64,000 bases of DNA from Eledone cirrhosa (taxonomy: Eukaryota). Below, piece after piece: positions 2,540-62,467 of this stretch. The translations under genes were made by a program, and so were the position numbers. The stretch's first letter is position 1; every line of letters starts with the position of its first letter. A model generated the notes under the pieces. That model worked only from the letters and a program-made list of their open reading frames with translations. It was not told the DNA's origin and did no database searches. The stretch lies in contig OZ024743.1 of NCBI GenBank assembly GCA_964016885.1, forward strand, positions 273,606,001 through 273,670,000. The letters run 5' to 3'.

Positions 2540-4240
2540 ACACATATTACAGCCTTTACTGAGGAGGCCATATCTGAACGCTTTAATTGTCCGAAAAAGA
2601 GATGCAAGAATACATTCGAGGTCAAGCAAGCTAAAGAAAAGTCTGGGGATTTCCCCAGATACAGCATAGTCGACCAGATTTTTTTCCTCTCCGGCAGTTA
2701 TTTGAGAGATCTTAGCTGGATTGTCAAAAGCTGTACGTTAGTTTTATGCCCCTCGAAGAGGCATACTATCACAATTATCAAGAGTATCTGATTTTCTACT
2801 TTACGTTTCTCACTTTTAGTTCCCTTGCCCTTTTTACGCAACCCCTCCTATTTTCTAGTGAACTTGGCGTGGACGAATATTTTATTATGATCATAAAACT
2901 TCCTATTTTACCTCCACTACCTTGCGTCTTGAGTGAATGACTTTTACTATAGCTCGATAGAAGCCTTTTGAGCTGCAATTGTGTAAAAAGTACTGGCTTA
3001 CCTACATTCGTTCTACTTCTACCTCCTTTAAAGCAAGGTTCTATAATCATTCTTCTACATTTAAATCTCCACTTAAAAGGACTAGCACCACCCCCTCAGA
3101 ACTTATTTGGTCCTTAAAAGACAAAATCATAAATTACGAAAGTTCTTGGCGAAAAATATACAACGCATACTCCTATGCTTCCATATCTAGTGTTTGTAAT
3201 TTATGTTTAGTTGAAAAATTTACCATTATCTCGAATTCCAACACAGTAATAAATCGAATAACCGATTTATTTGGACTTTGTAATTATAAATCCTACAAGA
3301 CCTTTCACAAAGTATATAGCTGATGTCCTATAACATATTCCATGATATTCACGGTTATCTTTACACATCTTTCATTATATTCTACAATGTATTAATTTGG
3401 TTTTCTCATCATATATTATGCCTTTGATCTTTTTTCTATACCCTTAGACTTTCGCTCAAACCTTCGTAGATTTTGTAAACAAATTATGACGTCATATATC
3501 TTTATACGTTTATAAACCTTTCTAGCAATTTATTTACTTATTGATATAAAATAAAAACGTTTATAAACCTTTATAAAACGTTTATAAATCTTTCTAGCAA
3601 TTTATTTACTTATTGATAAAAAATAAAAATTAAAGAGTATACCCCCACATATATAGATTTTTACTAGAAATTATTAATTTTAAACATAGATGGACTATTT
3701 TCATTTTTATTTTATTTTATAAAAACCTTTTTTTTATATTTATATATTTTTTTATATTTATTTTATTTTATTTTATTTTATTTTATTAATACAATTTTAC
3801 ACTTCTTAATCCAATTTTCAGTATTTAAACCAAATATAAAATAATATACACAGTTTCTATATTTAGATCTCTAACATTTGAATACCGTCTATAATATTCG
3901 CACATACACCTCATCAATTTACTTTTTAACCGTTATTTACAGCTGTTTTTATTTTGACAGCGTTCCTGATTTCTCTCCCTCTCTTCTTTTTTTTATTTTT
4001 TTTGTCCTTTCTTCTCTTTCTTTTCTTTTTTCTCCTCTTCTTTCCTTTTCGTCTATTTTCCTATCAATTCCTTACTATAGTATCATGTGTAGGCTTAGCA
4101 CTTTCCTGTAAACAGGTGCTATTATGCCTCATTTTAACTTAATTTATCAGAGGAGTATACCATTTTTGCCCCAGGATGATTTTGTATTCGAAATGCGCAT
4201 AATAAAATATATGGAACTCTTTTAACCATCTTTTAATGTG
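2540..4240 (+). mobile_element. Decayed Penelope-like element: GIY-YIG endonuclease remnant, AT-rich 3' region and pLTR hammerhead
   Basis: ORF 2979-3323 YIRSTSTSFKARFYNH..SELIWSLKDK..W..CNLCLVEK matches the PLE GIY-YIG C-terminus; hammerhead-like motif at 4144-4205. Confidence 0.8.
4144..4205 (+). ncRNA. Type I minimal hammerhead-like motif (decayed or variant core)
   Basis: TTAT-CAGAGGA-stemII-GAAA-TGCGCA-TA-ATAA with palindromic stem III; downstream flank is shared with the 23070-23412 element. Confidence 0.6.
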
Positions 4241-5635
4241 TTCATTATATATACAACACACACAAAAACAAGATGGCGTCGGACAGAACAAATGAGGGGC
4301 ACAAAAACAAAGAAAACAATCCCCAGTCACTGAAAAGGTCACATAATGTGTGACTAAAGAACTTTGAAATATATGAACAACCGTCCGGTTGTGGAACCAA
4401 CCAACCGGAAATTTATAAATTCTTAAATTTATAATAAATTGGAGTGAAAGCAAGTGGTGCGCGTGTTTCCTATTGGCAACATGACCCCCCCCCCCCCCCC
4501 CAAAGCATAACACTATCTCGGTTTCAACACACGTTTTCAGATAAAGAATCTTGCTAAACAAATTCAGAAACGAAATATATATATATATATATCATAAATC
4601 ATATCCTTAGAATCACTAGATAAAATATATACCATTTCTTCTCCCAATTAGCATAACTAACCATATAAAAAATCAATTAGACCAAGCTATAAGAATAAAG
4701 GCTCCTATGAAATCATTTTCGAGAAATATTCGAAAGCGGCCTCTTCTAAATATATATATTTAGCAACTTCTAGCCCGGTCAACTGCCCTCAAGTGATGAT
4801 TATTAAGTCTTCCCATGTTCTTGTGGCGAAGGTGCGTAGGCTTATAGTGTACTACCACCACCCTAGAGGCCAGCGGTGAGATCAGGTTACATTCAAGCTG
4901 GTCAGGAGTGCTAGAAACTGCCGCGAAAAATATTTTTTAAAAAAGATATTTCCTTAACAAAGTTATATATATGGCGTCAGCACAGTATATTGTATGGTCA
5001 GAAATTAGGATTAACAATTAAAAACGTTAAATTTATGTTTAGAGTTAAAAAATGTCATTTAAGATGAAATTAGAAAAGTAAGATTTCGGTTTTAAGTTGG
5101 GAGATTTAGTTAAAGAAATTACAGAAGGAGGCTTTTATGAAAAAGTATAAGTGTATTATAGATATTCACGATAAAGTTTCAGAGTAGGATATAGAGTAAA
5201 GATTAAGCCCTTGCTTAGCAGTCAAAACCAGCGACGACTGCAGACCTCCGGCCAGCCATACCCTAACTACGTGCCAGCCGTTCCGAGGAATATCGTCTAG
5301 CTAAAGAAATGCAAATTTATTTTTCCGAGCACTCCAGGAATATTAATGTTTTAAAGCGTCGGGTGTGTTAGCGGGAAGTCCGCCACCGTCAGCTGGCTAT
5401 CGTATATACCTATCGATTACTAGTTATTCACACTGTTGGGGGATTTAATTGAGTGCTAGTAGAAGGAGGCATGATACATTTAAATGTTATGATTAAGTCT
5501 AGAATGTAAAGATGTTTGGCGGTCAATAACCAGTTGCACGGCGTCTGAGAGGGCCCCAGGGAGAAACAGCCGTTCCGAGTATTTTCGTTTACCGAAAGAA
5601 GGGGAAATTTAATTTATTCCTTTGTTATATTTCGA

Positions 5636-5693
5636 ATACCTGATGATGTCACCGGATTCATACTGTACCCGGTTATTAAAATGATCATAGTAT
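5636..5693 (+). ncRNA. Decayed type I hammerhead motif
   Basis: ATAC-CTGATGA-(ACCGG/CCGGT stem II)-AAAA in place of GAAA-TGATCA-TA-GTAT; the element ends in (TA)n. Confidence 0.55.
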
Positions 5694-59569: not shown

Positions 59570-59740
59570 ATAGTGTTTCTATTTTTCGGCACAAATCCAT
59601 TACGGCAGTCCATTACTGGTACTTTATTTTATCGAATTAGTAAGTATGAAAGTCGAAGTTAACCTCGGCAGGATTTGAACTTAGAATGCAAAGGACCATA
59701 ACAATACTGCAAAGCATGGTGTCTGACGCTCTACCAATAC
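59570..59740 (-). mobile_element. SINE family A, decayed
   Basis: Core and B box similarity. Confidence 0.75.
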
Positions 59741-62467
59741 TTGTGTTGAGCTGGTCATTAATTTATGGTGGTCGTGCGTGAAGTAGAGCAATCGCTAGTT
59801 GAAATATTATGAACAAAACATTTTTATTTGCCGAAGAACATATTTTCAATACTGTTTGTGAATGTGACGAAGGAAATACATTCTGATATGGAACAGTGTA
59901 CAAAGTGTGTCTGTGAATAACATAATGTTACCTCATGTTGTTGTCAAGACATAATGGATTTCGTTTATCCAGTTAGAAGATGAAACCTAGCCATCTCGGA
60001 TTAGTTATATTTCATGCCATGTGTAAACGTGTTTGAGGATAGCAAAATATGCGCGTTAATTATAATAATTAGTTAATAATATTACAAAATATACCTAATT
60101 AAACTCTTTGCTTGAAATGTTATCATTCTTCGTTTATATATATATATATAGAGAGAGAGAGAGATTTATCTAGTCCTTCGCTCAAGATTAATCTATAAGT
60201 TTAGATGTTTGCCTTCGTTTAAGTAAATATTACAGTAAGATTTTTAATATAAACAACTACAAAAAACAATTAATATTAAAACGAAAAAATTATCAATGAT
60301 AAAAGAAGCGGATGCAACTTTTTTTTTTATAAAGTTATATTCCTGTTTCTTTAAAGAACATTTCATTTTTGTTCTATTGTAGGCGAAATAATGCAATGGT
60401 TTAATAGGGAAGATATAACTTACGAATTATGTCTCTAACCGTGTAACGCTTTTTAAGTAGATAACTACAATTGAAAATACTAAAGAAATGGAACCAACAA
60501 TTCAATTTGAAAGTCGTCTAGTGACAGTGTATTACTGGTACTTTATTTTATCGACCCCGTAACGATGAAAGGCAAAAATGCAAATGCTTAAAATTTAAAT
60601 TGCCTTAATTCTATCGTCTGCTGTTTCATTAAAGGGAGATTATCGTGTGTATTTAATTCTATCGTCTACTGTTCCACTAAACAGATATACCTCCACTATC
60701 GTCTCTATTTATACATTTTAACTTATAACTTATACACATTTGATTTGAAATATTTTATCTAGTCCCCCCTCTCAATATTATGATGATTTCTTTCGAATGA
60801 AACAGTTCTAGTCCTGTAGAAGCCATTTATATATATATAATTGAACTGAGTTAAAAATTCACAATATTTATAATTAAATAAGCTCATATATATATGTGTG
60901 TATTTATCTGTTTATTGTATTATATATAATGTGTGTATATACAGGATGTCCCCCAAAAATATATACACACTTCAACAGCATTCTAATAACTATTGCCTGT
61001 ACAGGTAATCAAAGTGTCAATCGAATGTTAGTTTCGTGTTTTAACAGTACAAATTTACAATACACACATAAAACCAGTGTATATACATACATGAATGTGT
61101 ATACACATACATGAATGTGTATATACAATATATATGTATATATATATAGACACATATATTCACGGTGCAACGGTACATTAAAATATAGATGCGGGAGAGG
61201 GGGGTGTATATATAGGGGCGCTGGGGATAAAGGAGTGTAAAGCGTGTGTAATTGATATATTGAAGGAGAGGAGCGTGCAGCGATAGAGTAACAAATATAT
61301 AGAGAGGGGGAGAGATGGTATTGAAGGGGAGGAGTGCAAAGCGAAAGAGTAAGAGATATATATAGAGACGGAACAGATAGAGAGAAACAGCCGTAAGTAA
61401 CAGTGGAAGAGATATAGAGAGAGGTACTCTGATTGGTTGAAAATTAGCCAATGACATACGATCACCACCACCACGGCTATCCCCGAAACATTTTTAAAGA
61501 AGCTAGGCATATATGTTAGAACACGAAAAGTGAACATTCTGTGTTTCACACTTTTCGTGTTCTAACAGATATATGTTATCTCGTCGACCACCGATTCCAA
61601 CAACCAGCGTTCTAGGACAGCACGTGACACATGCGTTCCCAGCCATGGCACGCGCGACCTTGGAGTAATTACCATGGAGATCTAGCCAGACACAGCCGAG
61701 TTCTTTGAATTTACAGACGACAACTTTAAGGCTGGCTTTTGCTGTTTTGACCAACTCACTTGGTGTGAGCATATAATATATATATATATGTGTGTGTATG
61801 TTATATGCGTGTGTGTGTGTGTTATATGTGTGGGTATGCGTGTGTGTGTATTATATGTGTGTATGTCATATGTGTGTGTATGCGTGTGTGTATGTGTGTG
61901 CGTTTTTGTTGTATATGTGCGTGTGTGTGTTATATGTGTGTGTGTATGTGTGTGCGTGTGTGTGTTTTATATATGGGTGTGTGTTATATGTGTGTGTGTG
62001 TATATATAATATATATATATATATATAATATATATTTATATATATATTATATATATATATTATATATGTATATTATGTGTGTCTCTATATATATATAGAT
62101 ATATATAGGTTTAAGTGTGTATGTGCGTGTGTATGTGTGTGTTAGCGTGTGTGTATATGTCCGTATGTATGAGTGTGTGTACGGTATGTGTGTGTTAGCT
62201 TATGTGTCTGTATGCGTGTGTGTCTGTCTGTGCGTGTGTGTATATGTGTAACTGTTTGTGTGTGTGTACAGGAATTCATAAGTTTCCTAAAATATGTCTG
62301 TATGCTTAATTTTTCTTAAAAATTATAAACTGGTTCTTCCTGTCAGAGATAATAATCTGATTTGAGAATAATGCATCTCAAAATATGAACATGGGTGTAT
62401 ATATATATATATGTATGTGTGTGTGTGTCTGTTTTTGTGTGTTTGCGTGTGTGTTAAATATATATCG

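Follow-up and report, generated by a model that had tools for sequence, protein, structure and literature searches.

The window (the whole 64,000-nucleotide stretch of DNA analyzed) contains type I hammerhead motifs at single sites, in fold-back inserts, in tandem arrays and in a broken Penelope-like element (PLE). The features are listed by coordinate, with no strand for fold-back inserts.

3003–3320, +: part of the C-terminal GIY-YIG domain from a Hydra-clade PLE; the 4140 motif lies downstream (63% to the L125 ORF of 821 aa by tblastn)
4140–4209, +: type I hammerhead, TGCGCA family (Hydra), with U4A in this single copy and stem I damage
4315–4388, +: decayed hammerhead, GAAC family, in a Neptune-type PLE 3′ end (4264–4575)
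5636–5693, +: hammerhead, TGATCA family, G12A change, one relative listed
9064–9145, −: intact (strict) hammerhead with long stem II and CTAATTAG stem III; half copy at 9589–9644
10134–10198, −: hammerhead, TATATA family, G8A, related to Hydra 3′ ends (78% to the L128-L130 family)
10813–11019: fold-back insert, long-stem U3-A8 family, two half motifs; in L073 a Hydra EN piece lies upstream
11640–11710, −: permuted (S-G-C order) hammerhead-like motif; more copies at about 33705–33770 (+) and 52895–52965 (−)
12712–12747, −: U3-A8 hammerhead, A13C family-wide (GCAA)
12999–13035: half motif
15268–15333, −: U4A (CAGAAGA) family motif at a Hydra PLE 3′ end, variant core typical of the family
15351–15431, +: 5′ half motif, CAGACCTG family, fused to a U4A-family tail
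15561–15787: fold-back insert, U4A family; two halves, junction within the core, right side a long tail
16024–16069, −: hammerhead, CAGACCTG family, A9G change
16352–16394, −: retrozyme family A motif, core exact, stem II decayed
18218–18409: fold-back insert, CAGTTCTAG family (Hydra), two intact hammerheads, 18219–18273 (−) and 18275–18327 (+)
21938–22894, +: U4A Hydra PLE 3′ UTR, full motif 22827–22877, 87% over 956 nt to L120
22984–23410: fold-back insert, TGCGCA family, motifs 23108–23178 (−) and 23305–23375 (+), one core change each
24963–25640, +: retrozyme family B, 466-nt period, intact motif 25304–25348
25888–26256, −: 3′ end of the CAGTTGA PLE family, decayed variant motif 26121–26189
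26945–27367: fold-back insert, GGACGTACTG family (Hydra), two intact hammerheads, 26989–27055 (−) and 27159–27225 (+)
34290–34709: fold-back insert, U3-A8 CCGG family, 34362–34397 (−) damaged, 34545–34580 (+) intact
35782–36190: fold-back insert, CGATCG family (Hydra), two half motifs; whole copies have a stem II of about 100 nt
37119–37185, −: GGACGTACTG family motif, C3U change
38743–39052: fold-back insert, GTAC family (Neptune-type PLE, L155), two intact motifs, 38858–38896 (−) and 38980–39018 (+)
43686–43740, +: weak hammerhead-like candidate (site 43690) in an old inverted repeat
46073–46117, −: hammerhead, CATTG family, U4C change; heavily decayed relative at 55484–55528 (+)
47163–49131: retrozyme family A, inverted arm with intact motif 47381–47423 (−) and a tandem of 3.6 units of 445 nt with C3U motifs at 47926, 48370 and 48815 (+)
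49245–52080, +: 5′-truncated, broken PLE between TA runs, RT plus C-terminal GIY-YIG (49552–51396), inverted 3′-end piece (49245–49443), decayed CAGTTGA motif (51790–51851)
53297–53339, +: retrozyme family A motif, G12U change
54417–54470, −: intact (strict) hammerhead, GGTCATAGC/TATATA family; a PLE ORF is absent from 3 related loci
57749–57822, +: U4A family motif, G12U change
60781–60834, +: heavily decayed motif, CAGTTCTAG family

Using a stem-aware type I descriptor, we identified 24 motifs with no more than one core change in the window, among them 11 strict motifs (exact core, stems I–III). The sequence-only reading had claimed about 30 motifs from more than ten families. This was confirmed: 34 of the 35 sites it listed were assigned to type I hammerhead families, our own grouping yielded 18 families, and 118 local dinucleotide shuffles gave a mean of 0.059 strict motifs (maximum 1). 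A narrower, earlier descriptor found 17, 16 and 11 matches at three thresholds vs 0.31, 0.04 and 0.007 in 296 shuffles; the reversed window gave none. The three permuted motifs reported by that reading are present, at 11680 (−), 33733 (+) and 52933 (−); the motifs at 4315–4388, 10134–10198 and 34362–34397 and the halves at 9589–9644 and 12999–13035 had been missed. Site 43690, with weak stems, no relative among the loci sampled and no TA within 600 nt, may be a chance match. No hammerhead in the window reached the Rfam gathering score, the best match among 150 of 228 listed being HH9 at 25293–25364 (38.9 bits vs 52), and of 10 motifs folded by minimum energy, few were predicted to form the complete hammerhead junction and only one reached z near −2. 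Stem III is palindromic in 15 of the 24 motifs, 7 of the 11 strict ones and 36 of 65 strict motifs elsewhere in the genome, and is an ordinary hairpin in several families; about 40% lack the palindrome.

The placement of nearly all motifs in (TA)n-embedded inserts was borne out on one side only. A (TA)n run lies within 200 nt 3′ of 17 of the 24 window motifs (null 723/4000, 18%; p 2e-8) and within 400 nt on that side of 21, whereas on the 5′ side there is no association (6/24, p 0.26). In spaced genome loci, TA is found on the 3′ side of 32 of 39 motifs (matched null 19%, p 6e-17) and on the 5′ side of 12 (p 0.06), compared with 4 and 7 of 68 for a SINE-like control repeat. Across these loci the motif count tracks TA content (Spearman 0.57).

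Ten of the 18 families end PLEs, as judged from a whole or partial ORF lying upstream: seven of the Hydra clade, two of Neptune type and one unplaced element coded in the window. Two of the remaining families are retrozyme tandems and six are unlinked. The ORF search reached three of these six and found no own ORF for the CCGG family in 4 loci, no ORF link for the GGTCACAGCC relatives in 3 and none for the TGATCA family in 1. The links of the GGACGTACTG and the long U3-A8 families come from one locus each, and the loci used for ORF tests were widely spaced pairs, a choice that favors long copies. Hydra diagnostics (RW[RKT], DKT, CxCx5C) are present in L120, L125, L130, L052, L157 and L158, and the Hydra-type ORFs form one clade (SH-aLRT 100) in a quick tree with no bootstrap and no named reference elements; the Neptune-type Cx4CxxC linker occurs in L155 and L037. 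The window PLE (49552–51396) has 138 scored copies at 91–95% amino acid identity, and its 3′ end with the motif region recurs at 28 of the 29 other loci. In families A and B and in a 311-nt family, ORF-less units are repeated in tandem, every unit has an intact motif, arms are inverted and TA borders each outer end.

Among the hammerhead-bearing inverted inserts of the window, 10 of 11 have unequal arms and a microsatellite no more than 300 nt from each end. Palindrome arms differ by 1–27%, the ends are unequal and family specific, each family has two fixed ends, and copies of PLE-linked families are 5′-truncated at variable points rather than being unit-length repeats. Copies paired within 2 kb were divergent in 23 cases and convergent in 1 (counted by eye among the first 100 rows listed), and 3 vs 0 in a second set. 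Because pairs diverge on opposite strands and about 40% of motifs have no palindromic stem III, the proposal that these hammerheads cleave as dimers fails in cis for most genomic copies.

We found 46 strict motifs in 59 spaced loci of 10 kb, or 78 per Mb (bootstrap 49–108, shuffles 0.2), a genome mean of about 5 per 64 kb; the 200 kb around the window hold 6.1 per 64 kb. The density described as extreme is far above shuffles, but only about twice the genome mean (11 vs about 5; bootstrap p about 0.035). In the 3.0-Gb genome, exact-core patterns matched 151,629 times vs 14,996 for the control, 138,788 vs 22,766, and 40,483 vs 40, a summed excess of 293,098 that takes in non-ribozyme repeats (e.g., one RTE-like coding stretch) and is set against an imperfect reversed-pattern control. 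Exact family copies occur genome-wide by the thousand (control matches, 0), about 40,000 CTAG-type motifs are present, and short-read contigs pile up on the GTAC motif to 3–5 × 10^5 vs 7.8 on unique flank (one sample; not a copy number). The genome likely holds a few hundred thousand hammerhead motifs, a scale for which we found no published precedent.

The Hydra-type hammerheads, the retrozymes and the Penelope footprint are of a known kind. Hydra elements (Craig et al. 2021, PMC8557442; including Hydra-1_Obim) target (TA)n and resemble those found here in the RWK-like motif, DKT, CxCx5C linker, C-terminal GIY-YIG, a hammerhead near the 3′ end, often with U10.1-U11.1, and inverted 5′-truncated copies with a tail on one side. 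The accessible part of that paper has one family from Octopus (O. bimaculoides) and no Hydra copy numbers, whereas here at least seven families are present, with from thousands up to tens of thousands of ends apiece and units reaching 3.3 kb or more, and in one of them U4A is fixed in the core. Minimal PLE hammerheads (Cervera and de la Pena 2014, PMC4209133) share the type I fold, palindromic stem III, an extra base after A9, many heterogeneous families, U3-A8 covariation and opposite-strand pairs 100–700 nt apart. Counts there are 2,000–9,000 per genome vs some 200,000–300,000 here, with differing descriptors; unlike that set, about 40% of our motifs have a non-palindromic stem III, and U4A, A6U and A13C families, present here, were not found in the accessible part of the paper. 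Metazoan non-LTR retrozymes (Cervera and de la Pena 2020, PMC7229834; Li et al. 2026, bioRxiv 10.64898/2026.07.22.740005) are likewise ORF-less tandems of 311–500-nt units with low GC and one type I hammerhead per unit. Unlike those published, the arrays here bear the footprint of PLE insertion, with arms that diverge and TA at each end; the largest count found in the accessible parts of these sources is up to 120,000, in axolotl, whose genome is about nine times larger. Poseidon PAc of Anolis (Frangieh et al. 2024, PMC11167929), which belongs to another clade and, unlike the elements here, was characterized biochemically, has an AT-rich target, cuts and extends both strands, and uses two start sites that give rise to the tail.

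We consider it very probable that these are type I hammerheads at the 3′ ends of PLEs (mostly Hydra) and retrozymes, put into (TA)n by the elements' own RT-endonuclease, and that they are so dense because many PLE families have radiated in a TA-rich genome, not because the locus is special. From the observed motifs, families, upstream ORFs, 3′-side TA, head-to-head arms and two fixed ends per family, together with the in vitro Poseidon work (PMC11167929), we infer the following steps. The GIY-YIG domain would nick both strands of a self-complementary TA run, and each 3′-OH would prime a copy that starts from either of two fixed positions close to the RNA 3′ end. Copying would usually end after a few hundred bases, the products being joined head to head; because the hammerhead lies within about 250 nt of the start sites, nearly every stub would retain one or two motifs. 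Given the head-to-head arms and two fixed ends, the published Penelope footprint, most genomic copies are probably inert relics or passengers. Selection would be confined to a few master copies, in which the ribozyme may trim or circularize read-through RNA, weakly and perhaps helped by the element's protein. The predicted PLE-driven ribozyme mobilome is upheld by the ORF links, the genome-wide scale and the polar TA link; its units need correcting, since most motifs are 3′ ends of autonomous PLEs rather than mobile ribozyme units, and ORF-less tandem retrozymes account for just two families.

Independent ribozyme mini-elements (retrozymes or SINE-like) spreading as circular RNA, with PLEs as mere helpers, would account for families A and B and the 311-nt family with their intact unit motifs and TA-bounded tandems, and the abundance of CTAG-type motifs and the six unlinked families could be read the same way. 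We regard this as unlikely given the PLE coding sequence upstream in 10 families and the variable truncation of their copies; it fits a minority of motifs at most. Retention by the host for gene regulation, with the window as a selected cluster, would suit its twofold density but is very improbable: of the roughly 44 type I motifs and half motifs in the window, just 11 are strictly intact, the others being decayed, half or variant-core, density follows TA content, there is no strand bias, and decay looks neutral. Least credible of all are chance matches in AT-rich, palindrome-rich DNA or assembly fold-back artifacts. A loose descriptor admitting TTGANAA cores did give 66 spurious matches in the AT-rich satellite loci L056 and L074, and the Rfam listing consists mostly of false microRNA hairpins; against this reading stand the near-zero shuffle and reversal controls under the strict filter, the exact family copies, the diverged arms with unequal ends and the short-read pile-up, and for the strict set it is refuted. 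These are genuine motifs, most of them the shortened ends of Penelope-type jumping genes lying in TA repeats.

The chances are even that the variant-core families are dead ribozymes amplified by hitch-hiking, which could occur because insertion needs no cleavage. These comprise U4A (23,000 copies), U4A plus A6U (2,500) and U3-A8 plus A13C (4,000). U3-A8 and U10.1-U11.1 are among described natural variants (Perreault et al. 2011, PMC3088659), and U4C and A6C are given there as tolerated or slow; the variants in the accessible part of that paper are rare and do not include U4A, U4A plus A6U or A13C, which are fixed here in thousands of copies and for which we found no description in the literature seen. 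Ribozyme mutants had no effect on insertion in vitro (PMC11167929), Naiad elements lack a canonical hammerhead yet thrive (PMC8557442), core changes usually lower activity sharply (PMC3088659), and the three C3U copies in the window tandem show that damaged motifs can be duplicated. Against hitch-hiking, subfamily substitutions avoid the motif in copies picked regardless of it: in the U4A family they fall in 0 of 42 motif columns vs 10 of 72 columns from flanks or loops (p 0.013), and in the CAGTTGA family in 0 of 33 vs 29 of 214 others (p 0.019), the columns not being independent. This constraint could reflect protein binding rather than catalysis.

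We scanned the window, a microsatellite-rich, 34% GC part of a 3.0-Gb assembly in which a cursory look showed no host gene, with a descriptor requiring CUGANGA (or its U3-A8 form), GAAA, UH, and three stems. The hammerheads perceived in the sequence-only reading are real: the window contains 11 strict motifs (exact core and stems I-III), compared with a mean of 0.059 in 118 shuffles, and 24 when up to one core change is allowed. The type I core blocks CUGANGA, GAAA, and UH occur in C-G-S order in the 11 strict motifs; stems I, II, and III (or a palindromic III) enclose the core, with stem sequences that vary by family while pairing is kept. 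Minimum-energy folds of whole motifs mostly did not show the hammerhead, and single-strand folds and two-copy cofolds did not discriminate monomer from dimer. By homology to motifs of other loci and inspection of each site, 34 of the 35 positions listed belong to hammerhead families, the sole site not confirmed as a family member being 43690, and 5 more pieces that had been overlooked were added. More than ten families had been claimed; we found 18, comprising some 44 motifs or half-motifs of type I (both arms counted), only a quarter of them strictly intact. The palindromic stem III attributed to most motifs was found in 15 of 24 motifs in the window and 36 of 65 elsewhere, but the CAGTTCTAG, U4A (CAGAAGA core), CAGACCTG, and GAAC families lack it.

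An initial strict descriptor, which required a 10.1-11.1 pair and therefore recovered only 4 motifs, and a loose one admitting TTGANAA cores, which gave many false matches in satellites (loci L056 and L074; L numbers denote other loci of the same genome), were both rejected. General repeat search was overrun by microsatellites and was replaced by masked self-BLAST. The strict filter was applied to all densities, with 59 of 59 loci kept, and families were clustered without L001, L056, and L074.

The window is only mildly exceptional in its genome. Across 20 contigs, 59 stretches of 10 kb at even spacing held 46 strict motifs (shuffles, 0.2), a genome mean of 78 per Mb (bootstrap 49-108), or 5 per 64 kb, and the 200 kb flanking the window carry 6.1 per 64 kb. 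The density described as extreme is thus far above that of shuffled sequence but only mildly elevated for this genome (11 versus 5 per 64 kb). Three disjoint exact-core patterns, which ignore stems and include some non-ribozyme repeats, exceeded reversed controls by 136,633, 116,022, and 40,443 matches (sum 293,098), and a fair range for the genome total is about 150,000-325,000. With other descriptors, published counts are 2,000-9,000 minimal motifs per genome (in passages of PMC4209133), about 5,000 hammerheads for mussel, as many as 120,000 for axolotl (both in passages of PMC7229834), and more than 6,000 in coral. Rfam at gathering score returned 0 hammerheads in the window (at an E-value threshold, its output was swamped by microRNA hairpins). 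With this result and the giant squid count of 235 (PMC6962438) in view, the census suggests that counting by Rfam overlooks nearly all of these motifs in genomes of this kind. The density is a consequence of known Penelope-like element (PLE) biology and does not imply a host function.

The motifs had been described as embedded in (TA)n. This association is one-sided: a TA run lies within 200 nt downstream of 17 of the 24 window motifs (null 18%), but upstream of only 6. Among the spaced loci, after 7 of 46 motifs lying <500 nt from a locus end were dropped, a TA run was found within 200 nt downstream of 32 of 39 motifs (null 10%; 19% in matched loci) and upstream of only 12. A control SINE-like repeat showed TA adjacency in 4/68 and 7/68 cases. 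TA on the 3' side of the motif is the pattern expected from 3'-first, target-primed insertion. The control repeat, which is abundant and has no (TA)n tie, occurs in the window at 343-726, 2049-2250, 23907-24096, 41788-42098, 44953-45066, 57195-57390, and 59574-59741.

Carriers were sought in loci with two motifs of one family 1-7 kb apart. Hydra-clade coding sequence was found upstream of the motif in seven window families.

Families of the window with Hydra-clade coding sequence, and where it was found
TGCGCA family: 821-aa ORF in L125; endonuclease piece at window 3003-3320
U4A family: L120, in a 3.26-kb tandem unit
TATATA relatives: L128-L130
CAGTTCTAG family: L157 and L158
CGATCG family: L052, L060, and L148
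GGACGTACTG family: L166, one of three loci
Long U3-A8 family: L073, one piece

The RW[RKT] motif (RWK-like), DKT in place of DKG, and a CxCx5C linker, listed as Hydra-clade diagnostics in passages of PMC8557442, occur in L120, L125, L052 with L060, and L158 with L157, and the linker only in L130. By eye, the endonuclease in the L125, L128, and L060 translations is without CCHH and has CxxC and CxH beside E and N. In a quick reverse transcriptase (RT) tree without named references, the five Hydra-type ORFs tested form one clade and join unnamed DKT-type proteins, far from DKG types. The PLE hallmarks (pLTRs, 5' truncation, inverted copy, and one-sided tail) are present. In the CGATCG family (L052 4345-4560 and L060 4440-4650), the core is canonical and its halves are ~100 nt apart, past usual descriptor limits. 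Many full-length PLE proteins (P0003-P0027 and P0090-P0104; both DKG and DKT types) come from single environmental-assembly contigs of 2.4-3.8 kb, about one element long.

Other carriers were also identified. The GTAC (L155) and GAAC (L037 and L069) families are accompanied by ORFs with a Cx2-5CxxC linker ahead of a GIY-YIG endonuclease at the C terminus, together with DKG and GxKF in L155, and by linker and endonuclease only in L037 and L069; as Nematis has the same linker, we label these elements only Neptune-type. Window 49245-52080 is a broken RT-GIY-YIG element preceded by an inverted 3'-end piece and flanked by TA at either end. Its family has a single ORF (in L013, RVT_1 E 1.6e-10 and GIY-YIG E 0.0011, the latter below the Pfam cut-off) and is young, with 91-95% amino-acid identity; the nearest named relative of the retroelement protein of the window is from Octopus bimaculoides (53%). 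GxKF, DKG, and CCHH place this element outside Hydra, and an assignment to Neptune or Nematis was rejected, the linker reading Cx4Cx6CC (L003, L011, and L013), not Cx2-5CxxC. Tandem units without an ORF make up families A (445 nt) and B (466 nt); each unit has a type I hammerhead and falls within the 150-500 nt retrozyme range, and both families are classified here as putative non-LTR retrozymes; their arrays elsewhere have divergent arms with TA at both outer ends, and arrays L134-L137 gave no PLE profile match. For 6 of the 18 families, no PLE link was found. In a tandem at window 47520-49131, the three complete motifs all share one C3U change, whereas the inverted arm is undamaged, a pattern that points to local duplication or to copying from a single damaged template. 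Further non-LTR-like fragments were seen by eye at window 40726-41385 (-), 45474-46034 (-), and 55596-56018 (-), none with a Pfam match, and at 14408-15147, which matches the RT-like ORF region of L037.

Ten of the 11 inverted hammerhead inserts in the window have a microsatellite near both ends, with one arm longer by 38-158 nt, and two preferred ends recur in most families when loci are compared. Close motif pairs point outward rather than inward (23 versus 1 by eye among the matches listed; 3 versus 0 in another set). A same-strand second copy is present in tandem arrays and tandem full elements; most stubs are paired on opposite strands and so would form no dimer within one transcript. For read-through RNA of a stub, a long hairpin is the predicted fold, and most motif copies are likely inert. 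Passages of PMC8557442 describe PLE copies as inverted and truncated, with a one-sided tail, and according to parts of PMC11167929, a PLE protein in vitro cuts and extends both strands, two start sites defining the tail; the hammerhead of that reconstituted PLE cleaves only with the protein, and ribozyme mutants still insert. We propose that both nicks in a TA run would prime copying from two sites and that the copies would halt early and then join head to head, the hammerhead being carried along as a passenger because it is close to the 3' end. No DNA contigs spanning any palindrome were found in three sets from one sample.

Chimeric inserts (window 15351-15478; L103/L104) join pieces of two hammerhead families between TA boundaries, which suggests template switching between family RNAs. 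A tRNA-derived SINE-like family (window 8483-8833, 10283-10623, and 26295-26483) has the same fold-back footprint, with ends 14 and 62 nt from TA and no visible hammerhead. At window 26216-26483, one copy and the 3' end of the CAGTTGA element abut head to head, suggesting that this family was moved by PLE enzymes. Window 58055-59023, where no hammerhead was called, contains 219-nt inverted repeats, 99% alike and 531 nt apart, the left arm being 99% identical to L130.

The invariant U4, A6, and A13 are not kept in three amplified families. The U4A family has 22,986 pattern matches genome-wide and A4 in all 30 copies selected through an upstream word; its native upstream sequence is followed by U4 (T4) in only 32 copies, and all three U4-bearing rows inspected arise at fold-back junctions. 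Such junctions fall repeatedly at a near-palindromic 7-mer within the core (window 15561-15692; L093 and L103-L107), so that one arm reads a canonical core. In a quick tree, the sister of this family, with support 97 and 52% protein identity, is the CAGTTCTAG family, which has the canonical core and the same layout; the U4A change is therefore likely derived. Among the first 100 matches listed for the CAGANGA pattern (17,749 versus 9,690 in the control), there was no further clear U4A family. The CAGUUGA family combines U4A and A6U with a PLE-typical extra base and a G-C closing pair; its CAGTTGA pattern has 2,471 matches, with G5 in nearly all of those listed, and the motif lies at the 3' end in the family of the window's own element. 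Its stem I of only 2-3 bp weakens the hammerhead reading. The third family, U3-A8 with A13C, has 4,046 matches, with GCAA in 99 of 100 of those listed, and a U3-A8 sister with GAAA has 11,539. U3-A8 and U10.1-U11.1 variants are published (in passages of PMC4209133 and PMC3088659).

Conservation of the U4A family measured on motif-picked copies is circular, and copies chosen independently of the motif were used instead. Copy-shared substitutions avoid the motif in both the U4A (0/42 motif columns versus 10/72) and CAGUUGA (0/33 versus 29/214) families, a modest sign, short of proof of catalysis, that the fold may be under selection in their master copies.

The observation is real, well explained, and known in kind; its scale is new, and the three core variants are possibly new. 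Already published are hammerheads in PLEs, Hydra elements in (TA)n, one of them an Octopus family that bears a hammerhead (parts of PMC8557442), the tail, and retrozymes as PLE derivatives. Our search, which did not cover Lunse et al., found no paper with an octopus hammerhead census or a U4A Penelope hammerhead. Lunse et al. reportedly describe many PLE hammerhead variants. A 2026 Octopus vulgaris repeat paper contains neither "ribozyme" nor "hammerhead", and a 2026 ribozyme preprint neither "octopus" nor "Penelope".

A bolder reading, which we hold only tentatively and consider rather unlikely, is that no genome described so far carries hammerheads more densely than this one (about one exact core in every 10-13 kb) and that it also holds a natural mutational scan of the catalytic core: U4A would have been fixed independently in two PLE families that are unrelated and were amplified recently (in one together with A6U), and A13C in a third, with the rest of the fold under selection. 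The variants would then be either active cores of a new kind, rescued through tertiary contacts or the protein of the element, or hammerhead folds retained as a signal for protein binding. The hammerhead is nearly universal in PLEs and slow in vitro. Variant-core families, if this reading is true, would answer what it is for. In the one reconstituted system, it is described as dispensable for insertion (passages of PMC11167929). As sister families differing at U4, the canonical CAGTTCTAG family and the 23,000-copy U4A family form a matched natural pair bearing on whether spread needs cleavage.

A permutation scan whose criteria were too strict returned no motif in the window, whatever the block order. 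The three permuted motifs, reported earlier from the sequence, exist as hammerhead-like sequences in S-G-C order:
11640-11710, minus strand, first permuted motif
33705-33770, plus strand, second permuted motif
52895-52965, minus strand, third permuted motif
They have a stem I of 4-8 bp and a stem III of 4-5 bp, and comparison of 4 copies shows compensating changes in these stems; next to GAAA, stem II amounts by eye to one A-U pair, with no plain stem II. The first belongs to a repeated unit that has an inverted arm and lies between TA runs (window 11060-12492).
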